Below, piece after piece: positions 6,913 through 48,012 of a stretch of 64,000 nt of DNA (positions are counted from its first letter, which is position 1; every line of letters begins with the position of its first letter). Origin of the DNA: an uncultured Gemmatimonadaceae bacterium (GTDB lineage Bacteria; Gemmatimonadota; Gemmatimonadetes; Gemmatimonadales; Gemmatimonadaceae); NCBI GenBank assembly GCA_963761305.1, contig CAVXGK010000002.1, positions 2,272,001-2,336,000 of the forward strand, given 5' to 3'. The notes under the pieces were generated by a model, which saw nothing but the letters and a program-made list of their open reading frames with translations, was not told where the DNA came from and made no database searches. The position numbers and the translations under genes are program-made.

Positions 6913-7692
6913 ATGGCCTACGAGACGATCACGCTCAGTGTCACGGACCGCATCGCGACCCTCACCGTCAACCGGCCGGACAAGCTCAACGCGTTGAACA
7001 ACGGCGTGATCGCCGAGCTGGGCGAAGCGATCGACTCGCTGCGGGCGGACCGCGACGTGGGCGGCATCATTCTCACCGGCGCGGGACGCGCGTTCGTCGC
7101 CGGCGCCGACATCTCCGAGCTCGAGCAGGTGGCCGGCGAGTCTGCCGAAGCGCTCGCCAAGCGCGGCCAGGCGGTCTTCAGCCGATTCGAGACGTCGCCC
7201 AAGCCGGTCATCGCCGCCGTGAACGGCTTCGCGCTCGGCGGCGGCTGCGAGCTGGCGATGGCGTGTCACGTCCGCATCGCATCAGAGAACGCGAAATTCG
7301 GCCAGCCGGAAGTGAAACTCGGGCTCATTCCCGGATATGGCGGCACGCAGCGGCTTCCGCGGCTCGTGGGCAAGGGTCGCGCGCTGCAACTGTTGTTGAC
7401 CGGCGAGATGATCGACGCGCAGGAGGCGTTGCGCATCGGCCTCGTGAACTGCGTCGTCGCCTCGGCCGAACTGATTCCCGCCGCGACCGTGACGATGCGC
7501 GCGATGCTCGCCAACGCGCCGCTCGCCCTCGCCGCCTGCGTGGCGGCGGTCAATCAGGGCGCCGACTCCGCGCTCGACACGGCGCTGTCGCTCGAAGCGT
7601 CGGCGTTCGGACGGCTCGGCGCCACCGCCGACAAGCAAGAAGGAACGCGCGCGTTCCTCGAGAAACGGGCCGCGAACTTCACCGGCGCGTGA
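6913..7692 (+). CDS. Enoyl-CoA hydratase (crotonase family)
   Basis: AFVAGADI, ALGGGCEL, FGQPEVKLGLIPGYGGTQRL; both catalytic Glu present. Confidence 0.93.
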   Translation: MAYETITLSVTDRIATLTVNRPDKLNALNNGVIAELGEAIDSLRADRDVGGIILTGAGRAFVAGADISELEQVAGESAEALAKRGQAVFSRFETSPKPVIAAVNGFALGGGCELAMACHVRIASENAKFGQPEVKLGLIPGYGGTQRLPRLVGKGRALQLLLTGEMIDAQEALRIGLVNCVVASAELIPAATVTMRAMLANAPLALAACVAAVNQGADSALDTALSLEASAFGRLGATADKQEGTRAFLEKRAANFTGA

Positions 7693-8840
7693 GCGCCGCC
7701 CCTGGTGCGGCCCGACTGGCGCGCCTCGTCGTCCGCGATTTCCGCAACCTCGAGCACGTGGAGCTGTCGCCGCCGAGTGCGGGGTGGGTCGTCGTGGGCG
7801 AGAACGGCCAAGGGAAGACGAATCTCCTCGAGGCGATTCACTATTTGCAGTTGTTCCGTTCGTCCCGCGGCGCGCGCGACGCCGACGTGGTGCGCTTCGG
7901 CGCCGAGGCGTTTCACATCGCCGCGCAGGTCGACACGGGGAAATGCCACGAGGTGTCGGTCGGCTTCGAGCGCGCCGGCCATCGCAAGCGCGCGCGGCTC
8001 GACGGCGCGGTGCCGGAGCGATTGAGCGACGCGCTCGGCGCGCTGCCGTCGGTGATGTTCTCCCCCGACGACGTCGCGCTGATCACCGGTTCGCCCGCCG
8101 AGCGGCGACGCTACCTCGACGTGATGCTCGCCGTGACGAATCACGCGTACTTGGTCGCGCTGCAGCAGTATCGCGCGGCCCTGCTGCGTCGAAACGCGGC
8201 GCTGCGATCGGCGGCGGCGAGCGGCGCGCGCACGCACTTCGCCGACGCGAGCGCGTCGGACGCCGTCGCGGTGTGGGAACCCGCGCTCGCCGAGTTCGGC
8301 GCCGCCCTCTGGCGCGAGCGGCGCGCGTGGGTCGCGTCGATGGAAGAGCGACTCGAGGCGCTCTGCCGGGAGATCGGCGAGGACGCACGCGTGCGGATGC
8401 GGTACGCGAGCAGCCTCTCCGCCTCGGACGATCCACGCACGGCGCTCGCACGCGCGCTCGAGGAGAAGCGCGGCTCGGATCTGCGCCGAGGACTCACGCA
8501 CGTCGGTCCGCACCGCGACGATCTGGTCGTCACGCTGGACGGCCGCGATCTGCGCGTGTTCGGATCGGCCGGACAACAGCGGACGGCGGCGATCGCGCTG
8601 CGCATGCTCGAGGCGGCGACCGTGACCGAGCGCCGCGGCCTGGCGCCGATGTTCCTGCTCGACGATCCGTTCGCCGAGCTGGATGCGCGACGATCGACGC
8701 GCATCCTGTCGCTGCTGGAACGCGAAGGGATGGGCCAGACCGTGCTCGTCGTGCCGCGCGAGGGCGACATTCCGAGCGCGCTCACACCGCTCGCGCGCTA
8801 TCGCATCGCGGGCGGCGTGGTGACGGCCGCCGACGCGTGA
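7689..8840 (+). CDS. recF: DNA replication/repair protein RecF
   Basis: FRNL, GENGQGKTNLLEAI, GPHRDDL, SAGQQR, LLDDPFAELD; GTG start overlaps upstream stop. Confidence 0.95.
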   Translation: MSAAPGAARLARLVVRDFRNLEHVELSPPSAGWVVVGENGQGKTNLLEAIHYLQLFRSSRGARDADVVRFGAEAFHIAAQVDTGKCHEVSVGFERAGHRKRARLDGAVPERLSDALGALPSVMFSPDDVALITGSPAERRRYLDVMLAVTNHAYLVALQQYRAALLRRNAALRSAAASGARTHFADASASDAVAVWEPALAEFGAALWRERRAWVASMEERLEALCREIGEDARVRMRYASSLSASDDPRTALARALEEKRGSDLRRGLTHVGPHRDDLVVTLDGRDLRVFGSAGQQRTAAIALRMLEAATVTERRGLAPMFLLDDPFAELDARRSTRILSLLEREGMGQTVLVVPREGDIPSALTPLARYRIAGGVVTAADA

Positions 8841-34289: not shown

Positions 34290-35261
34290 TCAGATCTCCC
34301 AGTTGGACAGCACGAGCCCCCGCTCGGGGCGTCGTTCCTCGAACGAATTGAGCGACATGCGCAGATCCGTCCAGCGCACGTGCGCGCCGAGCGCGATCAC
34401 GCGCCGGTACGCCGAACCGAACTCTCCCTGCACGCGAAGCGAAACCCGACGGGTGCCGCTGCGCCGTGCGAGATCGCTCACCGCGCGAAGCAGGTCCTCG
34501 AGCCGCGATTCATCGTCCAGCGCGAGCTTCAACACGCGCAACTCCTCTCGTGCGCGTCCCTCGACCAATGGAGCCGTATGCGCGAGCGCGAAGCCGACCA
34601 GCCGATCGCCGTCGTAGAGCAACACCGTGTCGCCCACCGACAAATCGCTGGTCAACGTGATCTCCCGTGAATAGTCGTACCCCGGAATCAGCCGTTGTAC
34701 CAGGTCCCGGCATTCGGTGAGCGCGTCGTCGCGGGCGCGGGTCGACAGCCGGCCGAACAGCCGCGCGCCGTCGATCGACTGCTGCGCGTCGAGCGTCATG
34801 GTGATGGTGAGACGTCCTGGCAAGAACCCGAGCCGCGAGTAGAAGCCGATGTTGTCCATCGTGCGCGGCATCGTCTCCAGCCCGATGACCGACGCGCGCT
34901 GCGTCTTGAGCCACTCGACGCCCCGCTGCACGATCTCTTTCCCCACTCCGCTGCCCTGATACTCCGTGCGCACGGCGAGCGGTCCCATCCAGCCTTCCGT
35001 CCCCGAACGGTGCACCATGTTGAAGGCGGCGATGTGATCACGCTCGTCGCGCCAGATCATCGCGCCTTCGTCCGCGTCCTCGAGCGCGTAGCGCCAGATG
35101 GACGGATTGAGGAACGGTACTCGCACGCCGACCATGCCGTCGCGCCGATATCGCTCGGTGAACGACTCGCTGAACACCTGATTCAGCTCGGCGACGTCGT
35201 CGAGCGTCGCACGGGTCGGGCCGTCGAACGCCTGCGGGCGCCACGCGCGTGAGGTCGCCAT
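34290..35261 (-). CDS. GNAT N-acetyltransferase (probably tandem GNAT)
   Basis: PLAVRTEYQGSGVG acetyl-CoA motif, NIGFYSRLGF; TGATG coupling to rad50/sbcC. Confidence 0.85.
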   Translation of the reverse strand: MATSRAWRPQAFDGPTRATLDDVAELNQVFSESFTERYRRDGMVGVRVPFLNPSIWRYALEDADEGAMIWRDERDHIAAFNMVHRSGTEGWMGPLAVRTEYQGSGVGKEIVQRGVEWLKTQRASVIGLETMPRTMDNIGFYSRLGFLPGRLTITMTLDAQQSIDGARLFGRLSTRARDDALTECRDLVQRLIPGYDYSREITLTSDLSVGDTVLLYDGDRLVGFALAHTAPLVEGRAREELRVLKLALDDESRLEDLLRAVSDLARRSGTRRVSLRVQGEFGSAYRRVIALGAHVRWTDLRMSLNSFEERRPERGLVLSNWEI

Positions 35262-37711
35262 CAGTCGGCCGCTCCTGCGTGCAGGGCGAGTACCGGATCG
35301 CCTTCGTGCGGCGATTCCGCACCGATTCGCGACGTGCCGGCTTCGTCGTCGTAGCTCACCGTGATCACGCGATCGACCGGCGCCTCGCGAACCGATTCGA
35401 CGTGCGTGATGAGAATGATCTGCTCGAATCTGTCGTGCAGCCGTTGGAGCAGGCCCACGACGTTCTGGCGTCGCGTCTCGTCGAGCGAGCCGAAGACCTC
35501 GTCGAGGACGAGCAGTGAAAACGTCTGACCGGCGCGTTCGGCGATCATCTCTGAAATTGCCAGGCGGAGTACGAGATTGGCGAGGTCCTCTTCGCCACCG
35601 GAGATGACGGGTTTGGGGATTCCGTCCTCGAGCAGAACGATGCCGTACGCGTCGTCGAGCTCGAATTCAGTGTACCGACCGTCCGTCAACTCGCGAATGT
35701 AGCGGCTCGCGAGATCCGAGATCTCCGGACGCATCGCCACGTTGAGCTCGGTGCGGATGTCGGAGAACGCGCGATCGAGCTCCTCGTGCAATCGGCGGTC
35801 GCGTCCGAGCACGACGAGCCGCTCCTCGCTGCGCGCCAGCTCGGCGCGCGCGTGCTCCGCCGCCGTGAGGGCCGCGCTCGCCGCCGAAAACTCCGTCTCC
35901 GCCCCCACCGCGGCCAGCTCGGCCGCGCGAAGCTCGGCCTCGGCCGTCTCGAATCGCTCGCGAAGCGCGGCGAACGAATCCTCGGAGAATCCGAGCGTCG
36001 CGATCTGACGCGCGACTTCGGCGCGCCTCTTCTGCGCCTGATCCAGCCGCGTACGAACGGTCGTCCGCTCTTCGACGAGCAGCGGCTCGCGCTCGAGCTG
36101 CGCGGCCAGCTTGGCCGCGCGCGCCGCGAGCGGCGCGAGTCGTTCCGCCGTCGCGCGGACCTCGGTGTGACGCGCCTGGTCGTAGCTGACGGCCAATCCG
36201 GCGAGCTCGCGCGAGACGGCAACGTGTCGCTCCGCCTTCGCGGTCAGATCGACGCTGATCGTCGACAACACGCGCAGTCCGCCCTGAATTTCGGCGACGC
36301 GCCGCTCGAGCTTGCCCGCTTCTTCCATCAGCTCGCGCCGGCCCTCACCGAGCGCGGTGATCTCCGGCGGCGTCGTGGCGAGTTGGTCGATGCGCGCGCG
36401 AAAGTATTTGCCGTCGACGGTGATCGTCTCGATCTGGTTGTCGAGCACGTCGAGCACCGAACGGAAGTGCGTGCCGAGCGGCCGAGCACAGATTGGGCAG
36501 ATTCCGCCTTCGCCCAGCTCGACGATCTGGTCGCGCTGCGCGCGCACGTCCTTGATCTGTTCGATGAGCGCTTGCCGCTTCGTTTCCGCTTCCTGCTTGT
36601 CGCGGACCCAGTCGGTTTGCGCCGACTCGAGCGCGCGCTGAGTCGTTTCGAGCGTCTCGCGTGTCTGAGTGAGCAAGGCGGCGACTTCCGTCCCGAGCGC
36701 CGACGTGACGTCGATCTTCGCCGCGCGCTCGCGAAGCTGCGCGATGTCCTTCGCCAGCGTCGATTCCGTCTCGGTGAGCGTCCGCTTGCGACCCGCCTCG
36801 GCCGCGCTGCGGTCGAGCTCCTTTAGCTCGGCTTCCAACGCGGGCAACGGCGCGAGTTCTCGCTTCGCGCGATCCAACTCGGCGCGCGCGGTGGCCGCGT
36901 CGCCGAGTTCTTTATCGATCCGAGCGATGTCGCGCTCGGTCGACGAAAGCTCGCCGTCGGCGACGCGCGACTCGGCAGCGAGTGCCTGCGAGCGCTCGCG
37001 ATCGCGCTTCATCGCGTCCCAGCGCGGCGTCATTTCTTCCATGGTGCGACGCGCCGCGGTGCGCCGGAGTCCCGCCGCGTTCGCCTTGCGCTTGCTGTCG
37101 GCGATGCGCGTCTTGGCGTCGGCGAGCGAGCGCTGGACGACCTCGGGATCAGCCATTCCCGTTTTGAGACCGGTCGCTTCGGCGACGAGCGTCTTGCGTC
37201 GGTCACGCGCGAAGCCCTGCGCCGTGCGAAGCCGCTCGTAGCCGAGCACGCGCGAAAGGAATTGGCCGCGCTCGTTCGGGCCCATCGCGGCCATCACGCT
37301 CAGTTCCTTCTGCCCCGTGAAGTACGTGTGGAAGAACTCCTCGTGGCTCATACCGAGCCGGCGGCGGAGCACGTCCGTCACGGCGGAGATCGACGTCGCG
37401 ATCGGCGAGCTGGCGCCGTCGAGATACAACTCGGCGTTGGTCAGCCCGCGCGAAACGAGGTATCGATGTGCGCCGAGCTCGAATTCGAGGTCGACTTTGA
37501 CCACGGCGCGCGGTCCCGCGCGGTACGATCGGATGGAATCGCGCGTGCCGCGCGCCGCGGGCGTGCCGTAGAGCGCCCAGGCGATCGCCTCGAGGATCGT
37601 CGACTTGCCGGAGCCGTTCGGTCCGATGATCCCGGTGATTCCCGACGTGAAGTCGAGATGCGTGTCGATGTGCTGCCGGAAATTCGTGAGGTGCAGACTG
37701 TTCAGTCGCAT
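35261..37711 (-). CDS. sbcC: Rad50/SbcC SMC-like ATPase
   Basis: NFRQH, GPNGSGKST, coiled coils, CPIC zinc hook, ISGGE, LDEVFGSLD, ITH; 816 aa. Confidence 0.92.
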   Translation of the reverse strand: MRLNSLHLTNFRQHIDTHLDFTSGITGIIGPNGSGKSTILEAIAWALYGTPAARGTRDSIRSYRAGPRAVVKVDLEFELGAHRYLVSRGLTNAELYLDGASSPIATSISAVTDVLRRRLGMSHEEFFHTYFTGQKELSVMAAMGPNERGQFLSRVLGYERLRTAQGFARDRRKTLVAEATGLKTGMADPEVVQRSLADAKTRIADSKRKANAAGLRRTAARRTMEEMTPRWDAMKRDRERSQALAAESRVADGELSSTERDIARIDKELGDAATARAELDRAKRELAPLPALEAELKELDRSAAEAGRKRTLTETESTLAKDIAQLRERAAKIDVTSALGTEVAALLTQTRETLETTQRALESAQTDWVRDKQEAETKRQALIEQIKDVRAQRDQIVELGEGGICPICARPLGTHFRSVLDVLDNQIETITVDGKYFRARIDQLATTPPEITALGEGRRELMEEAGKLERRVAEIQGGLRVLSTISVDLTAKAERHVAVSRELAGLAVSYDQARHTEVRATAERLAPLAARAAKLAAQLEREPLLVEERTTVRTRLDQAQKRRAEVARQIATLGFSEDSFAALRERFETAEAELRAAELAAVGAETEFSAASAALTAAEHARAELARSEERLVVLGRDRRLHEELDRAFSDIRTELNVAMRPEISDLASRYIRELTDGRYTEFELDDAYGIVLLEDGIPKPVISGGEEDLANLVLRLAISEMIAERAGQTFSLLVLDEVFGSLDETRRQNVVGLLQRLHDRFEQIILITHVESVREAPVDRVITVSYDDEAGTSRIGAESPHEGDPVLALHAGAAD

Positions 37712-37712
37712 C

Positions 37713-38903
37713 TCACGCCTCGATCGGTGCCGGCGGCGTCGACACGACGGCCGCGATCTGTGCTTCGTCGAGGTACGCGATCGCGCGCTCGATGAGCGCC
37801 TCGCGATCGATGTCGGCGTCGATCGGACGCGCCGAGAGTTGTTCGCGCACCAGCTCGTTGAGCGACGGACGACGAACCGGCGCACCCGACGCGGTCACGC
37901 GGCTCAACTCGGGGCGACGCAGGTCGAGCTGGAAGCTGAGCGCCCGGCGCTTGTACTCGCGGATTGCTTTGTGATCCAGCTCACGCGCGACGTGTCTCGG
38001 AATGTCCCACAACGTGAGCCGCACGATCTTGTCGTCGATCCCGCCCACGCACGCGTCGACGATCGCGCGAATACGGTGGTCGATGTCGGCGGCGACGAGA
38101 TTGCGCGCGTTGATCTGCGGCAAGTTGATCAGCGGCCGCGACGGCAGAAGCGGATGGAACGTCTGCTCGCCGGTGATGAGATTTCGCTCGACGAATCCCT
38201 TGCCGTGGACGCCGCCGTCGTGTTCCTCGCGTTGCTCGCCCCACGTGTCCAGGCTGGTGTAGTCGATCGAACCGCTGTAGAAGGCGTTCGGCAGGATTTC
38301 GCGGTAGACGTGACAGTCGCCAAGCGCGATATAGTCCCAACCGGGAACCGTCAGCTCGGAGCGTGACACTTCGACAGGCGGCCTGTTCCAGGCCATTTCG
38401 TCTGTCACGCCCTCGATCCCGCAATGCATCGCGAGAACGTTGAAACGGGCGTTCGCATCGGGCGTGAACGACGGCTTCACGAGTCCGGGAACGCCCGGCA
38501 CCGCCAGCACCGACAAGTCGTGAGTCGGAAACGACAGCCGCCTGGGCTCGCGATCCACGACGTCCAGACCGAGTTGCGCAAAGAGCTGGAGGATGCCGCC
38601 CGTCTCGCTCGTGCGAGGTGTGTCGTGGTTGCCGGCGACGAGGACGATCGCCGATTCGGGCAGCGCCGTGACGAGGCGGCTGAACTGGAGGAAGGCGTGG
38701 ACGATCGCCTGATTCGAGGGGCGGACGTTGTGAAAGACGTCGCCCGCTACCACCACCAGCTCGGGCCTCAGCTCGATGACATGGTCGACAGCCACGCGGA
38801 ACGTGGCGGCCACATCGGCTTCGCGCTGGTTGACCCCGGTTGGCGTCAGCCGCTGATACTGCCGGTAACCGAGGTGAAGATCGGAGAGGTGAACCAGGCG
38901 CAT
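37713..38903 (-). CDS. sbcD: Mre11/SbcD metallophosphoesterase nuclease
   Basis: SDLHLG, AGDVF, GNHD, ALGDCH, YSGS. Confidence 0.9.
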   Translation of the reverse strand: MRLVHLSDLHLGYRQYQRLTPTGVNQREADVAATFRVAVDHVIELRPELVVVAGDVFHNVRPSNQAIVHAFLQFSRLVTALPESAIVLVAGNHDTPRTSETGGILQLFAQLGLDVVDREPRRLSFPTHDLSVLAVPGVPGLVKPSFTPDANARFNVLAMHCGIEGVTDEMAWNRPPVEVSRSELTVPGWDYIALGDCHVYREILPNAFYSGSIDYTSLDTWGEQREEHDGGVHGKGFVERNLITGEQTFHPLLPSRPLINLPQINARNLVAADIDHRIRAIVDACVGGIDDKIVRLTLWDIPRHVARELDHKAIREYKRRALSFQLDLRRPELSRVTASGAPVRRPSLNELVREQLSARPIDADIDREALIERAIAYLDEAQIAAVVSTPPAPIEA

Positions 38904-38926
38904 GCGGCGGGGAGCGTTGAGGGAAT

Positions 38927-39769
38927 CTAACGCTCCCGGCGATCCGCCGTGCGCATGTGTTGGGTGATCCGCATCTGCATTTGCTGCGCGGCAGCCGCCG
39001 GCGGCGTGCTCACCGACGTCATGACGACGACGTTGAACCAGGATTCGCTCAGCCAACCCCGCCGGCGGTCGAGCACCATGGTGCCGCGCACCGTTCCCTT
39101 TTCGAGAATTGCTTGCGACGCCGACCCCGGTCCGATGGCCGGCTGCATCTCGCCGCGCATCGAGACGTATGCGAGGTCGCCGCCGTGCGTGACCGAATCG
39201 AGTTTGAGCGTCACGTGCAACATGCCCGAGAGCTGCGCGCCCAACTGCGTACCCGCCGGCAGCGGCATCTCGCGCATCCAGCTATCGCCCACTTTGATGG
39301 GACCTTTGGGGAACGTCGCCGGCATCAACGACACGACGTGCGCGACCTCACGAGGCGCGCCCGACCCCGGCGCCATCGCCAGCAACCCCTCCGGCGTGAC
39401 GCGAAATCGTGCCCGCTGCCCGCGAAGCTGCGCCTCCATCTGGTGGGCCGCGCCGAGTCCGCGCTGATCCGTGGTCCACAGCCGCACCGAGTCGGTGACC
39501 GCGAGGATGGCCGTCTCTTCGTTCGACTCGCCCTCGATGATGGCGCGCGAGAACATGGCCATCGTCGTGACGAGGCTGCCCGGGCCGACGCCCGTTCGCG
39601 TCACCGCACCGCCGCTGTAGTCGGTCTCCTGGTCGAGACGCATGCGAAGCGTGTCGCCGGCGCGCGGCCGGATCTGGAGCAACAGATCCTGCGCCATCGC
39701 ACTGTGATGGACCGACGCGACCGCGAAGAGCCCGACGCTTGCGCCGATCCGGACCTGCCGCGGAAACAT
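38927..39769 (-). CDS. Hypothetical secreted beta-rich protein
   Basis: Signal-like N-terminus ending SAMA|Q; FPKGPIKVGDSW motif reminiscent of DUF6263. Confidence 0.7.
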   Translation of the reverse strand: MFPRQVRIGASVGLFAVASVHHSAMAQDLLLQIRPRAGDTLRMRLDQETDYSGGAVTRTGVGPGSLVTTMAMFSRAIIEGESNEETAILAVTDSVRLWTTDQRGLGAAHQMEAQLRGQRARFRVTPEGLLAMAPGSGAPREVAHVVSLMPATFPKGPIKVGDSWMREMPLPAGTQLGAQLSGMLHVTLKLDSVTHGGDLAYVSMRGEMQPAIGPGSASQAILEKGTVRGTMVLDRRRGWLSESWFNVVVMTSVSTPPAAAAQQMQMRITQHMRTADRRER

Positions 39770-39777
39770 TCGAAGAC

Positions 39778-41751
39778 TCAGAAGCCGTACGGGTCGTCGG
39801 CCGGCGCCGAGCGAATCGCCGCGGCCGGTTGTCGGTCCGGGGATGCGGGCTGTGCCGACACGATGGGCTTGAGCTGCGACTGGAAGAACTTCTTCACGTC
39901 GGCGGGCCGTTCGCGCATCGTGGCGTTCTTCGCCCGAATCACTTCCTCGTCGTCGCGAATGCCGATCGCGTCGCGGACCCAGTTCAGCGTGATCGACGGA
40001 TCGAGCGAACGCAGGTTGCGCAGCACGGCGGCGTCGAGATCCACGTCGACCGACTGGGGATACTTCTCGATTCCGTCGCGCCCGCGCATGATCGCCGGCC
40101 GCGGGAACCGCACGAAAATCGGCTGCGTGAAATGCGGATGCCGCACCATCAGCTGCCCCTTCTCCAACGTGGCGAGCTTCGTCTTCACGGCTTGACTCAG
40201 CACGGCGTAGCCAGGCGTCGCCAGCTCGTCGGCGTCCATGCGGCCGAACAGCGCCGTCCCGGAATTCCCCACGACGCGACGGTGCACTTGCGAACGGAAC
40301 TGTTGCGCGCCGAACAGCACGAGGCCGAGGTACCGGCCGCGTTCCGCGAGATCGAGCAGCATCTTCCGTACATAGGTGTCTTGTCCATCGTTCGGCGCGT
40401 ACTTGTTCAGCTCGTCGACGAACACGATGACGTGGTTCACGCCGAGGTCGCGCTTCTCGAGGTGCTCCCGAAGGCGAGTCACGACGCGCGCGAAGATCAA
40501 GTCCTGCGCGTCTTCCTCGAGGGAGGCGACGTCGATCACGTACACCGTGCGGTCCTGAAAGCTCCCGAACGGCAAGTCGCTGACCGTTCCGGCATCGGTG
40601 ACTAGTCCGGCGCACCGGGTCGAAATATTGGTAAGCCGGTTCCGAACCTTGCGAATCGTCGCCACATGGTGCGTTCGCCACCCCTCGTTGCCCTTGTTCT
40701 CCATCGCCGACAGCAGGTCGCGGAACCACATCTCGAGATCGGCGAACGAGCGGACGAGGTAGCGCTTGTTGCCGAGCAGCGGATCGGCGAAATCGCGATC
40801 GACGATCCGCTCGCGAATGAAATCGATCAGCGCGTCGGCCTTGGCGTCGACGTCGTCCTTGTTGAGCAGCACTTCGGCGTATTGCAGCACCTCGCGCAGT
40901 CCCCATGTGAGCGGCGTCACATTGTGCGTCAGCTCGTCGTTGGACCGCAGCGTGTTGAGCGAGAAGCCGTCGGACTTGAACGGCGCGAAATACTGGACGT
41001 TCTCGAACGGCGTCGCCGGCACGCCGCATTTCTCGTACAGGGCAGCGTCGCGCTCGTCGATCGGACCCGGCTGGTCGAGAAAGCACAGGTCCGGCCCTTT
41101 CACGTTGAAGCACACGGCCGCGATCGAGCCCTTCTGCTCGGGGAAATGCGTGAAGATCGAGCCCATGATCCACTCGATCGCGCTCGTCTTCGTCGCGAGA
41201 CCGGACACGCCGGTGATGTTGAGATGCGCCGCCTCCGGCCCGATCAGAAAATCGGCGTCGAGATAGATCGGTGCGTCCGTGCCGCCGGCGTGGTACACAC
41301 CGATCGGAATGCCGGTGCGCGCGCCGTCGCGGAGATACGCGTCCATGCGCAGCGCCACTTCGACATCGTCGTCGCCGGCGAGAAACACCTGCCCCATCCC
41401 CACCGGTTGCAACGGTTCTTCGGGGACCTGTCGGAGCACCGCCGCCGTGTACAACCGGATCTCCGCTCGGCGTGTGGCGGCGAGCGATGCCGACGTCGGC
41501 GCGCCGTCGTGGCCGAGGACGTCGTGCAGCGGCGTGGCGAGATCGGTGTAGCTCAGCCCTTCGACGACGACGCCGTAGATCTGCGGAATCTGGCCGTTCA
41601 CTGGCGCGTCGCCTTCGACGCGCACGATCGTCCCGATGCCGACCGGCGAATCGAGCGCCGTCCAGAAATGGAATTCGTGCGGCGTGTTCGGCTTGCGTTC
41701 AGTCGCGACCACGCGACCGAGTGGGGAAGACGTTGATTCGTTGGCCGTCAC
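39778..41751 (-). CDS. herA: HerA ATPase (bacterial type)
   Basis: N-terminal HAS-barrel-like region, HLNITGVSGLATKTS Walker A variant, FNVKG, FVDELNKYAP, ERGRYLG...AQQ. Confidence 0.85.
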   Translation of the reverse strand: MTANESTSSPLGRVVATERKPNTPHEFHFWTALDSPVGIGTIVRVEGDAPVNGQIPQIYGVVVEGLSYTDLATPLHDVLGHDGAPTSASLAATRRAEIRLYTAAVLRQVPEEPLQPVGMGQVFLAGDDDVEVALRMDAYLRDGARTGIPIGVYHAGGTDAPIYLDADFLIGPEAAHLNITGVSGLATKTSAIEWIMGSIFTHFPEQKGSIAAVCFNVKGPDLCFLDQPGPIDERDAALYEKCGVPATPFENVQYFAPFKSDGFSLNTLRSNDELTHNVTPLTWGLREVLQYAEVLLNKDDVDAKADALIDFIRERIVDRDFADPLLGNKRYLVRSFADLEMWFRDLLSAMENKGNEGWRTHHVATIRKVRNRLTNISTRCAGLVTDAGTVSDLPFGSFQDRTVYVIDVASLEEDAQDLIFARVVTRLREHLEKRDLGVNHVIVFVDELNKYAPNDGQDTYVRKMLLDLAERGRYLGLVLFGAQQFRSQVHRRVVGNSGTALFGRMDADELATPGYAVLSQAVKTKLATLEKGQLMVRHPHFTQPIFVRFPRPAIMRGRDGIEKYPQSVDVDLDAAVLRNLRSLDPSITLNWVRDAIGIRDDEEVIRAKNATMRERPADVKKFFQSQLKPIVSAQPASPDRQPAAAIRSAPADDPYGF

Positions 41752-42749
41752 GTCACCGCTCGCAGAAACTCTTCACAGTCGCGAACTCCGTAGACCATCT
41801 TGTCCCAGCGCGCGTCCGGCAGCGCGACCGGCGACGCCTCGGCGAGAATCCACCGGGAAACTTCGTCGGCGCGCGCACCGATGTCATCCTCACGCGCTTT
41901 GTCGCGCGGCGACACCTCCACGCGAACCAGACCCCACATCGGATCGTGGCCGGCGCGGTCCCGGAGCCGAAGATACCAGCTCGCCACGGGCGCGCGTTTC
42001 TCCGGCGAGATGGAAAAGACGCTCGTGCGCTCACCTGCCTCGAGGCCGAGCGCGACTCTGAGCGCGTCGCCCTGCACGTACAACGTGCGATGGCTCTTCA
42101 CGACGCCGATCGCGCAGGCCGACCGGGCGATCGGCTGCGCCGCGCTGATGCCGCCGTCGATCAGCAGCGGCCGCGTTTCAGACGCGCACCATTCCTTCGC
42201 CAGCGCATGCTCGAGCGACTCGCGGTCGTTTCGCACAAGGTTCCGCGCCAGCTCGCGCAGGGCGATGGGATGCTCGGTCGCGTCGGCCACGCCATCCGTC
42301 GTGTCGCGCGCGCGGACGCCGCTCGCGTCGAGCGCCCGCCGGTCCGATGCGCTCAGGAATCGCGTGGGAACGTAGATGCGCTGATCGACGGCGTGCTTCC
42401 ACGTGAACATCCGCCGATCTCGGCGCTCGCGAATGACTGCCCCGATGATCCCCGCCACGATCGGCACGCCGCCCGCACGGTACATCTTCACCGCGCTCTC
42501 TTGACGCCCGTCGAGAAACGCGGCAAACGCTACCTCCGGCGAGCCCGTTACCGCGATCGCGCGCACCTCGCGCCCCTCGATCACCGTCGCCTGCGCGAGC
42601 CTGGGCGGGTCCGACGCCTCGGCCGTGAACTCGAGCGGCGCTTCACCTTCGACGGGTTCGCCATCGGGAAAGATCGTCGCCAGCCACCGGCCGATCGTGT
42701 GGTCCGGACGCACGGAGGGCGGCTCCGTGGTCACGCCGGTGCTCGTCAC
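41748..42749 (-). CDS. nurA: NurA-like 5'-3' nuclease
   Basis: AFLDG, LLIDG, GVVKSH, GERTSVF, SWYLRL, DARWD...E; stop overlaps herA start. Confidence 0.75.
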   Translation of the reverse strand: MTSTGVTTEPPSVRPDHTIGRWLATIFPDGEPVEGEAPLEFTAEASDPPRLAQATVIEGREVRAIAVTGSPEVAFAAFLDGRQESAVKMYRAGGVPIVAGIIGAVIRERRDRRMFTWKHAVDQRIYVPTRFLSASDRRALDASGVRARDTTDGVADATEHPIALRELARNLVRNDRESLEHALAKEWCASETRPLLIDGGISAAQPIARSACAIGVVKSHRTLYVQGDALRVALGLEAGERTSVFSISPEKRAPVASWYLRLRDRAGHDPMWGLVRVEVSPRDKAREDDIGARADEVSRWILAEASPVALPDARWDKMVYGVRDCEEFLRAVT

Positions 42750-44155: not shown

Positions 44156-44434
44156 CTATTCGACGCCGATATCCCAGGCTTGCTGCAAATCCTTTCGCGA
44201 GTACGCGCGAAACGCCGTGAGCGTCTGCGTGCGTTGAATTCCCGGGACGGTTGGGAACACCTCCGTCACGACGTGCGCGATCTGGTCGTATTGCGGCACG
44301 CGCACGATCGCCACGAGATCCCAGTCGCCCGACACCGAGTACACCTCGGTCACACCGTCGACGCCGGCGAGCATGTTCGCCGCCGTCGGAATGAGCGTCG
44401 GGTCGACGCGAATCAGGACGATCGTTGTGATCAC
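44156..44434 (-). CDS. Lrp/AsnC ligand-binding-domain-only protein
   Basis: GVTEVYSVSGDWDLVAIV, GIQRTQT; no HTH. Confidence 0.85.
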   Translation of the reverse strand: MITTIVLIRVDPTLIPTAANMLAGVDGVTEVYSVSGDWDLVAIVRVPQYDQIAHVVTEVFPTVPGIQRTQTLTAFRAYSRKDLQQAWDIGVE

Positions 44435-44958
44435 GGTTCGACGGCCGGCGGAGGACAGGGAGGTACGTTGAGCAGCCAGAGACCGGAGATGCGATTCTTG
44501 TCGTCCACGTCGAACAAGAGATCTCGCGCGACGCGAACCGTGCGCGCGCCACGCGGCGCGCCGAGCCGGAAGTGGAAATTCGTCTGACTGGGGTCGGCTT
44601 CCGCGATCAGGTGCGTATCGACTTCCACCGACGCGACGTCGGCCTTCGTCTTGCTCACCGGCACCATGACCTGCACGTCCTCGATGTGCGACGGCAACGC
44701 CAGCGCCGGCAGCCTTCGCACGTCCGGCCACACGGCCACCTCGACACCCGCAATGCGACCCGCGGCGACGTCGAGGATGACCCACGAGCCGTCGGTTCCT
44801 TCGAGCCCTACCGATCCGGACAACCCGTCGCCCGACGCGCGCGGCGTCAACTGCGCCGACAGAATGTCGGTGTCGGGATCCCAGGTGTATTCCACGTCCG
44901 CCGGCAACGCGTCGGCAGGCTGAATGTGTACGTCAACCTTCACGTCCTTCTCCTCCAT
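44431..44958 (-). CDS. Hypothetical protein, tandem DUF2283-like
   Basis: Two related halves: WDPDTDIL...ILDVAAGRIAGVEV and ADPSQTNF...LFDVDDKNRISGLWL; start may be GTG 44943. Confidence 0.6.
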   Translation of the reverse strand: MEEKDVKVDVHIQPADALPADVEYTWDPDTDILSAQLTPRASGDGLSGSVGLEGTDGSWVILDVAAGRIAGVEVAVWPDVRRLPALALPSHIEDVQVMVPVSKTKADVASVEVDTHLIAEADPSQTNFHFRLGAPRGARTVRVARDLLFDVDDKNRISGLWLLNVPPCPPPAVEP

Positions 44959-45087
44959 GTGGGTCGAGTGCGAATCTCGCATCCCGCGCGGCGTAGAGCA
45001 GGTCCGAATTCGCGCGCACGCGATCACGGCCTTGCAGCGTCTCCCGCCCTGCCCCGCCCGGTGTCTCGGACGGCCCGTCCCTCGCGG

Positions 45088-46344: not shown

Positions 46345-48012
46345 ATGTCGTCCGACGAACACGAGCTTCCACCAGTTTCCCGCGGCCAAAACGCGCTCCT
46401 CGTCCTGCCCCACGACTGGGCGTCGATCGCCGAGTTTCTGGCGCCATTGATCGAACGCGTCGATCCCGAATCTCCGGACGTCCAGGTCGTCATCGCAACC
46501 GCCGACGCCGAGGTCGCCGCAGCGGTCATCGCGGCAAGCGCCCGGCTCGTCGGCGATCGTCCGATCGGCGTGCTGGCTGCGACGTCGTCCGCACGCGCGG
46601 CGCGACTCGTCAAAATCCGGCCGCCGCACATCGTAGCCGGCACACCGAGCACGCTCGTTGGTCTCCTGCGCGCCAGCGCGATCAAGCTCGACGCTGTCCG
46701 CGCGATGTGCATCGCGTGGGCCGACGAGCTCCTCGCGCGCGATGAATCCGCGTCGTTGGAAACGCTGATGGCCGAGGTCCCGAAGGACGCGCCGCGCATG
46801 ATCGTGACATCCGTCGCCACTCCCGCCGTGGATGAGTTGGTCGAACGATACGCGCGGCGCGCGCGTCGGGAAGTCGCGCGCGCGCTGGAGGGGCGCGAAC
46901 CCATCGGTCTGGAGTACGTGCTCTCGTCGATGACCGCTCGCCCCACCACGCTGCGGCGCCTGCTGGACGAAATCGACCCGTCGTCAGCGCTGGTCTTCGC
47001 GCGCGAGGCCGATAGCCGGGTGAGTGTGCGCGATCAGCTCCGCGTGCTCGGCTACGGCGACGAGGGCGACGTGCGTTGCGGCGTGGCCGCGCCGCCCGAG
47101 ACGGCCCTCACCGTCTTGTACGACCTACCAGCGACCCACGAGGAGTTGCGCGAGGCGGTGTCCGGTGCACGCCGAGCGATCGCGCTCGTTCGCCCGCGCC
47201 AACTCGAGAGCCTTCGTGCGCTGGCACTCGGCGGCGCGCTCAAACCGCACGTCTTGCCTGAAGCGGTTGCGGCGTCGCGCGCTCGCGACGCGAGCATTCT
47301 CGCTCAACTGCGTCGGATCCTCGATAGCGGGGCCGCGTCGCGCGAGCTGCTGTCGATCGAGCCTCTGCTCGAGGATTTCGATGGTGCCGAAGTGGCGGCG
47401 GCGGCGCTCAAGCTGCTCGAGCAGGAGCGAGCCGCACAACAGGCGCGCGCTGTGGAACAGGAGAAGGTCGCGAGCCGCGAGGGCACATACGCCGAGCGAT
47501 CGCCCGCCGCGCCGCGCGAGTCCTCCGGGCCCATGGTCAGCCTGTTCGCGAGCGTCGGCGCGCGCGAGGGCGTGCGGCCGGCGGATCTCGTCGGCATGAT
47601 CACGAGCAAGGCGGGCGTGGCCGGCAGCGACGTGGGTCGCGTCGACATCCGCGAGTCGCACTCCACGATCGAGGTCGCGAGCGGGCTCGCCGATCAGATC
47701 ATCGACCGCGCGTCGGGCACGATCGTGAAAGGACGCCGCGCGCTGCTCAAGCGCGACGAAAAACCCGCGCGGCGCGATTCGCGCGACGAGAGACCTGGCC
47801 ATCGCGGACCACGAGAGGAGCGCCCGTTCAGGCGCGGATCGGGAGACGACCGCCCGTTCGGGCGCGGGTCACGGGACGACCGTCCGCCTCGGCGCGATGG
47901 AGCCCGCCGAGAAGGCCGGCCAGCCGGGCCGCCGCGCCATCGGTCGGGCGACCGACCGGCTGACGATCGCCCCCGCGGCCCGCGCGGCCCGCGCTCCTCA
48001 CCTCGCGCGTGA
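46345..48012 (+). CDS. Degenerate DEAD-box-like protein with DbpA RNA-binding domain
   Basis: [33 protein letters not shown]...VGRVDI; Arg/Gly/Asp-rich tail. Confidence 0.75.

Follow-up and report, generated by a model that had tools for sequence, protein, structure and literature searches.

A nurA-herA-mre11-rad50 locus inherited across the Gemmatimonadales is a candidate DNA break-end processing system

The window analysed here, 64,000 nucleotides of an uncultured Gemmatimonadaceae bacterium (GCA_963761305.1, contig CAVXGK010000002.1, positions 2,272,001 to 2,336,000 of the forward strand), contains a string of six genes in which nurA, herA, mre11 and rad50 are joined by an open reading frame of 280 codons (ORF280) and a gene for a GNAT acetyltransferase. 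We put the chance at slightly better than even (about 0.55) that this chromosomal locus has been passed on vertically in the Gemmatimonadales and that its Mre11-Rad50 and NurA-HerA together process broken DNA ends, in an order where most genomes show no AddAB/RecBCD-type nuclease, and that it resembles the archaeal four-gene resection system in gene content and probably in mechanism, with NurA and HerA of bacterial type and a modular build. The biochemical cooperation of the four proteins is what we infer from the archaeal and Deinococcus enzymes; the gene identities, intact motifs, linkage, distribution, order of loss and the loss of a HerA loop together with nurA were observed directly. The genes are as follows.

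41748..42749, minus strand: nurA, bacterial-type NurA nuclease with an RNase H-like fold (333 amino acids, aa; FoldSeek/structure match)
39778..41751, minus strand: herA, Deinococcus-type HerA ATPase/translocase (657 aa; PDB sequence match to 7F6D)
38927..39769, minus strand: ORF280, DUF6263-like protein (weak DUF6263 match, E 2.4e-4, below cut-off)
37713..38903, minus strand: mre11/sbcD, phosphoesterase nuclease (396 aa; Metallophos)
35261..37711, minus strand: rad50/sbcC, short SMC-type ATPase with a CPIC zinc hook at residues 405-408 (816 aa)
34290..35261, minus strand: GNAT, tandem-domain acetyltransferase (323 aa; Acetyltransf_1)

All six ORFs are intact and lie on the minus strand, and the junctions described in the initial annotation of the window were confirmed on the sequence: the nurA TGA and herA GTG overlap by 4 bp (GTGA), herA and ORF280 are separated by 8 bp and ORF280 and mre11 by 23 bp, the gap between mre11 and rad50 is 1 bp, and at the rad50/GNAT junction (TGATG) the GNAT start codon overlaps the rad50 stop. 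The identities proposed there, including mre11 and rad50 with the CPIC hook, also held, with motifs intact. Translational coupling alone proves little here, because nurA is likewise joined, by overlapping start and stop codons, to a SAM methyltransferase gene upstream that was found in only 5/80 related loci. Relatives were sought in a phylum sample of 150 other genomes (at least 90% complete), comprising 107 of the same order, taken as Gemmatimonadales by inference with named relatives in the Gemmatimonadaceae/Gemmatimonadales, and 43 outside the order; the source genome itself is 93% complete in 2 contigs. The labels f2, f4, f5, f7 and f8 below denote families inside this sample, and L-numbers denote fetched loci.

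Neither NurA nor HerA has a Pfam match, and structure was therefore needed to establish their identity. For NurA, the protein scan gave no Pfam or NCBIfam match and sequence-only searches failed to identify the protein; the NurA model PF09376 matched neither in the protein scan nor in the genome at E ≤ 1, with Deinococcus radiodurans and Thermotoga maritima positive in the control, and this family model misses the NurA clade of the locus. An AlphaFold model built from 99 homologues (predicted local distance difference test score, pLDDT, 86.6) gave 7f6d_G (E 3.5e-12) and 1zup as its best Foldseek matches, with a VIA Z score of 18.9 both to 7F6D_G of D. radiodurans (root-mean-square deviation, rmsd, 3.9; 270 residues aligned) and to 1ZUP_A of T. 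maritima (rmsd 3.5; 252 aligned). Archaeal NurA scored lower (2ygk Z 14.1, others below), and the next non-NurA fold reached Z 9.1. The comparison with solved NurA thus bore out the NurA/RNase H-like fold suspected for 41748-42749, and the model indicates a NurA of bacterial (Deinococcus/Thermotoga-like) and not archaeal type. Profile searching, by which the initial annotation had hoped to recognise NurA, failed with PF09376, but the fold and the catalytic motifs were found through the model.

The acidic catalytic set of NurA comprises a motif I DG, a Glu, a motif II DG and a C-terminal His/Glu (PMC3300031, PMC13748450). The protein of this locus has motif I FLDG (D80), E180, motif II IDG (D198), K218 and a C-terminal E326, of which D80, E180, D198 and E326 fit that set, matched to the PfNurA/TmNurA residues by motif and order without residue-level superposition. 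Among 112 homologues these residues are kept in 109 (D80), 112 (E180), 112 (D198) and 111 (E326). The motif I Asp is replaced by Gly, Asn or Glu in 3/19 homologues of another family, f2 (three loci among L100-L125 and L154), and in none outside it; these changes possibly reflect decay on the way to loss.

HerA, which had no Pfam match in the protein scan, has a single PDB sequence match, D. radiodurans HerA (7F6D, E 4.6e-45, residues 9-310 and 346-577). It combines a HAS barrel with a RecA-like ATPase domain carrying Walker A (GVSGLATKT, residue 181), Walker B (residue 443) and an arginine-finger motif, intact in 35/35 homologues examined, and the barrel bears an acidic loop at about residues 63-100 that includes D77. 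D77 aligns, in low-confidence columns of the 7F6D alignment, to D78 of DrHerA, one of three residues required there for NurA binding (PMC9960219). Two other roles for this ATPase were considered and dropped. Substitution for FtsK is ruled out by the presence of FtsK in the genome, where ftsK and a recA-like gene lie about 2 kb apart or less on the same strand (G000:C2:513245-516859). Membership of an anti-phage system (SIR2-HerA, TdpAB or the PADLOC HerA models) does not agree with the housekeeping context, the order-wide fixed position and the PADLOC matches, which were weak and to generic ATPases only (E 4e-8 and 3e-5).

Mre11 and Rad50 were recognised as an adjacent phosphoesterase and SMC-type ATPase with a CxxC hook. 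The best PDB match of Mre11 is the archaeal-type 3auz (E 4.6e-14), against 9e-4 for SbcD entries, and D8, H10, D55, H93 and H198 are invariant in the homologue alignment. At residue 196 of Mre11 (window 37713-38903), the sequence reads GDCH here versus GHYH in 53/68 homologues by a crude regular expression, a change from metal-ligand His to Asp. Rad50 scored best in NCBIfam with archaeal Rad50 (PRK03918, 197 bits) versus sbcC (TIGR00618, 103 bits), both below cut-off, and its best PDB matches are archaeal-type entries. Walker A, Q134, SGGE, LDE, H770, C405 and C408 are invariant in a 68-row alignment, and the hook is CPTC, CPIC or CPVC in 117/117 near-full-length homologues.

In trees of Mre11 and Rad50 (FastTree, 46 and 40 sequences, midpoint root without outgroup, archaea represented by two haloarchaeal plasmid pairs), both proteins fall outside the clade that joins E. 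coli and Pseudoalteromonas with the cassettes described below (Shimodaira-Hasegawa support of that clade 0.987 for Mre11 and 0.99 for Rad50). Their neighbours are Arcobacter, Pontibacillus, Priestia and the two haloarchaeal plasmid pairs, the nearest named relatives being bacterial. These sequence relationships indicate a short-form lineage separate from E. coli-type SbcCD; the phylogenetic check proposed in the initial annotation set the pair apart from the E. coli SbcCD clade, but an archaeal origin did not emerge from trees so sparsely sampled and midpoint-rooted. In six f7 genomes (G112, G109, G126, G129, G060 and G128; L191-L196) there is an additional, divergent mre11 that belongs to the Gemmatimonadota lineage; after it, a Rad50-like match extends for just about 350-440 aa before the stop codon and may represent a truncated or split Rad50.

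Across the 107 same-order genomes, herA was found in 97, nurA in 83, mre11 in 106 and recJ in 105. The linkage on which the initial annotation had staked its case is conserved in relatives: of the 82 genomes having nurA as well as herA, 77 keep these two and mre11 on a single contig, as read from search coordinates and 66 fetched herA regions, and the other 5 have them split over contigs. HerA and mre11 lie at most 5 kb apart in 95/97 genomes, including after nurA deletion, and rad50 follows mre11 within 150 bp in 126/127 fetched loci, the rad50 linkage counts referring throughout to fetched loci picked around herA or GNAT. The trees of these four genes, herA, mre11, rad50 and GNAT, are congruent (own family monophyletic in 4/4; distance correlations 0.71-0.86), which demonstrates vertical inheritance and not co-evolution.

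The invariant core of the string is mre11-rad50-GNAT. The nurA gene is missing in 15 of the 97 genomes with herA, in several of which the upstream gene abuts herA, and herA was not found in 10/107 genomes. In 8 readable loci without herA, mre11-rad50-GNAT is left without either gene, and one further such locus is a contig-end fragment. The first gene to be lost is nurA, and the four-component machine envisaged initially is not an obligate one. One sampled genome only (G104, L154:5070-9460) has nurA and no herA, with 4.4 kb of other sequence between nurA and mre11.

The nested loss left a trace in HerA itself. The HAS-barrel loop, whose length was parsed by regular expression, is at least 36 aa long in 100/100 parsed loci with NurA (14 further such loci were left unparsed by the expression and are intact by eye), and is shortened or scrambled in 8/15 genomes without NurA. 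These 15 genomes sit at several separate positions of the HerA tree, two of them having genus-mates with NurA and an intact loop. The acidic loop is likely the docking site of NurA, and its loss along with nurA suggests that a NurA-HerA complex forms in these bacteria. The ATPase motifs of HerA are intact in all 15 NurA-less genomes, and the ratio of nonsynonymous to synonymous substitution rates was 0.055-0.17 in 5 NurA-less pairs, partly inside one genus. Because HerA stays under purifying selection after deletion of nurA, it likely serves another function that does not need NurA, in company with Mre11-Rad50 or RecJ. Sulfolobus Rad50, Mre11 and HerA co-precipitate without NurA (PMC2288612), and DrHerA stimulates RecJ (PMC4663267); by analogy, both suggest themselves as fitting partners of a NurA-free HerA.

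The search for addAB/recBCD called for in the initial annotation gave no match in the source genome to PF12705, the nuclease domain of AddA, AddB and RecB, which makes a resection role for the string plausible. The domain occurs in 34/107 same-order genomes versus 43/43 outside the order, and, among the matches listed, in an ORF of AddA/AddB size in about 21 of the 107; the RecJ search (105/107 same-order genomes positive) served as detection control. This counts as one lineage-level contrast, since kin are not independent. With most of the order showing no AddAB/RecBCD-type nuclease, the string likely supplies break-end processing. A hidden AddA was looked for among four UvrD-like loci and dropped: the three scanned proved to be a PcrA/UvrD, a short AAA protein and a UvrD carrying a DEDD exonuclease insert, and the fourth, a 708-aa frame, lies in a genome negative for PF12705 throughout. 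The UvrD with the insert (L210:3981-6926, contig C1 of the source genome) is a 981-aa UvrD-like helicase with an inserted DEDD (RNase T-like) exonuclease domain, a possible helicase-nuclease.

On the reading that we prefer, Mre11-Rad50 would bind and clean a blocked DNA end, after which a hexamer of HerA would load and drive the duplex into a NurA dimer docked on its HAS-barrel loop. Cleavage of the 5' strand by NurA would expose a 3' tail on which RecFOR/RecA could act. RecJ-RecQ would operate alongside, which may be why nurA and herA can be lost. The initial annotation had suggested recF in the window as the feed point; the RecF/SMC_N match lies in an ORF at 7263-8840 beside gyrB, about 25 kb away, and at that distance recF stands outside the cluster.

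Several observations weigh against this cooperative model. Within the order, AddAB and the string complement each other only loosely. Among the matches listed, an AddA/B-sized PF12705 ORF is present in 14 of the 82 genomes with nurA and herA, and 9/15 NurA-less and 9/10 HerA-less genomes are without one. RecJ and RecQ, which offer an alternative resection route, and Ku are encoded in the source genome, as is FtsK, and all f7 carriers of the cassettes described below have PF12705. Unrelated-looking genes stand in and around the string, herA and mre11 being directly adjacent in only 21/125 loci. In a synteny background drawn with crude gene calling from a 400-kb part of a single genome belonging to the other main family, 22 of 36 adjacent co-directional orthologue pairs (61%) are adjacent here too and 27 of 36 lie within 5 kb. 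Moreover, deletion of nurA-herA in D. radiodurans improves survival of mitomycin C and far-UV, with resistance about 10-fold higher, and resection by its NurA-HerA in vitro is weak (PMC9960219).

Given that background synteny, conserved gene order within the order is weak evidence when taken alone, and the string could consist of two independent modules, NurA-HerA and Mre11-Rad50, frozen with housekeeping genes in a slowly rearranging run while RecJ-RecQ does the resecting. The 61% adjacency, the carriage of AsnC, PTPS, SDR and ORF280, the persistence of mre11-rad50-GNAT without herA and nurA, and RecJ in 105/107 genomes all agree with such a history, to which we give an outside but real chance. 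What speaks for coupling instead is that herA stays by mre11 in 95/97 genomes, even after nurA deletion, and that the same HerA family recurs in other phyla (a cyanobacterium, actinomycetes and a Chloroflexota member), there next to another SbcCD lineage and with the genes in a different order; from this repeated assembly we argue for functional coupling of HerA/NurA with Mre11-Rad50.

The Deinococcus deletion phenotype raises a further option, that NurA-HerA destroys or restrains DNA ends, acting on linear DNA that enters the cell or curbing excess recombination. Such a role has been suggested for Deinococcus and Thermus; Mre11-Rad50 would perhaps hand over the ends. RecBCD and AddAB also degrade foreign DNA, and their loss could be offset by NurA-HerA; related cassettes on plasmids lie beside TIR, HEPN and IrrE-type genes. 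This locus, however, has genome-average GC content (about 66%), housekeeping neighbours and congruent gene trees, and it keeps its position in about 90% of the order; the PADLOC matches are weak and generic, and we consider an end-destroying role unlikely.

The GNAT gene has long been adjacent and coupled to rad50. It is present in 107/107 same-order genomes (one a contig-end fragment) and in essentially none outside, lies within 150 bp of rad50 in 109/115 fetched loci, overlaps the rad50 stop in 53/58 loci with an assignable ATG and has many invariant residues. Eco1 acts on cohesin, and by analogy the GNAT might belong to the machine as a fifth member, dedicated to acetylating Rad50/Mre11 and thereby tuning the complex. 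This appears rather improbable to us: the same Mre11/Rad50 lineage occurs without a GNAT nearby in f5 and f8, the genomes of f4, f5 and f8 yielded no orthologue, and three distant relatives with usable context (L158, L215 and the short contigs L216-L219) have no rad50/mre11 neighbour; the retrieval of context for distant relatives gave only five short metagenome contigs. The model of the protein (pLDDT 93.9) is closest to 3DDD, a putative acetyltransferase of Pyrococcus horikoshii (Z 25.3), and its nearest structural neighbours are tandem GNATs that are either uncharacterised or act on small molecules. Apparent Rad50-GNAT fusion proteins (P0157-P0159) are frameshift artefacts, and complex prediction of GNAT with the Mre11-Rad50 head scored 0.01, evidence neither way. 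The acetylation of repair proteins proposed at first thus found no support, the GNAT being tightly linked to rad50 yet kept where herA and nurA were lost; a repair role for it is speculation.

ORF280 is likely an exported passenger, judging from its sequence. Its N terminus looks like a signal peptide by eye, translation from another possible ATG, at 39697, would yield 256 aa, and its Atlas neighbours are Gemmatimonadota DUF6263/hypothetical clusters. Beyond the two closest relatives its identity is 28-57%; it is missing from L030, L052, L069, L076 and L079, where mre11 comes straight after herA, and is duplicated in L120 and L123.

The locus shares with the archaeal herA-mre11-rad50-nurA operon of Sulfolobales and Thermococcales (PMC13748450, PMC2288612) four families on one strand and a short hook-bearing Rad50 and Mre11 with archaeal-type best solved relatives, and differs from it in its bacterial-type NurA and HerA, the order nurA-herA-(ORF)-mre11-rad50-GNAT, the dispensability of nurA and herA and the coexistence of RecJ, RecQ, FtsK and Ku. 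The closest structural match for both subunits is D. radiodurans NurA-HerA (PDB 7F6D, 7WRW, 7WRX; PMC9960219, PMC4663267), which has the same nurA-herA order, an acidic HAS-barrel docking loop and a host with RecJ-RecQ and without RecBC/AddAB nuclease; the present locus departs from it in the linkage to mre11-rad50 and GNAT and is only distantly similar to it in sequence, with a structural identity of 14-18% for NurA. The archaeal style claimed for the set in the initial annotation therefore applies to the short Mre11 and Rad50, but NurA and HerA are of Deinococcus-type. Likewise, the proposed archaeal-like resection machine keeps its identities, linkage, short Mre11/Rad50 and the absence of an AddAB/RecB domain, but with bacterial NurA/HerA it is neither obligate nor unique.

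Nor are bacterial NurA-HerA pairs confined to two-gene units, as had been assumed. Blesa et al. (2017) noted sbcD-sbcC downstream of hepA (herA) in Oceanithermus profundus and likened the arrangement to the archaeal system (PMC5448004); this nurA-hepA locus resembles ours in that a bacterial herA is followed by sbcD and sbcC, and it is mentioned in passing for one genome, without experiments in the accessible text, whereas here the locus is inherited order-wide with a GNAT. In further phyla, the same HerA/NurA family and four-gene content occur in mobile cassettes of Sphaerospermopsis, Streptomyces and Chlorohelix (plasmids) and Nonomuraea, which differ in having E. coli-like SbcCD (SbcC mostly 930-1140 aa), no GNAT, a patchy or plasmid-borne distribution and, in some, IrrE/sigma regulators. 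The f7 family has this HerA/NurA family beside E. coli-like SbcCD in 12/16 genomes (for 11 of these the fetched region contains all four genes), in two distinct gene orders, herA-sbcD-sbcC-nurA and nurA-herA-sbcD-sbcC (L086-L097), kin to the actinomycete and cyanobacterial cassettes. On a Pontibacillus megaplasmid (L200:2869-9478), RefSeq lists NurA, an ATP-binding protein, a phosphoesterase and an 825-aa SMC ATPase in the same order as here; its short-form Mre11/Rad50 is among the closest plasmid relatives, and its NurA and ATPase were unmatched by the profiles built in this work.

The string sits within a longer same-strand housekeeping run, with an aminotransferase, AsnC and two methyltransferases upstream and PTPS and SDR downstream. 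A scan for promoters and terminators detected neither a sigma-70-like site nor a minus-strand terminator within the cluster, which is uninformative in a GC-rich genome, and the idea of an SOS box was dropped after a LexA motif scan of the genome, a weak test, returned nothing. Upstream, a hypothetical protein without Pfam hit (window 44431-45027) is conserved in both main families and lies immediately next to herA or mre11 in several genomes that lost nurA or both genes. A 555-aa ORF at window 46345-48012 has a C-terminal DbpA RNA-binding domain and no helicase Pfam match at E 1e-6, and resembles a degenerate DEAD-box-like protein.

At the level of titles, our literature search found no account of this locus in Gemmatimonadota, nor of a GNAT coupled to sbcC/rad50. 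Iyer reportedly described bacterial herA/nurA neighbourhoods in 2004 and may have mentioned a linkage to sbcCD. The present work adds that AddAB is scarce at the level of the order, that gene loss is nested and accompanied by loss of the likely docking loop of HerA, and that Mre11/Rad50 form a separate lineage. In its strongest form the proposal would run that the Gemmatimonadales largely dropped AddAB and made their native Mre11-Rad50-HerA(-NurA) the main entry route for double-strand breaks, as the first bacterial order to do so, with HerA as a direct partner of Mre11-Rad50 whether or not NurA is present, and with the tandem GNAT, specific to the order, as a dedicated acetylation regulator of the Rad50 complex; in that full extent it is distinctly improbable.

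A 2026 review states that the four-gene layout is lacking in bacteria, and the order-wide bacterial locus described here contradicts this statement. The four-gene system is under-counted because standard annotation misses the NurA and HerA genes, which have no Pfam match. The genomes with and without nurA, herA or AddAB amount to natural knock-outs, which make the cooperation of HerA with Mre11-Rad50 and the function of a NurA-free HerA testable in a mesophile.

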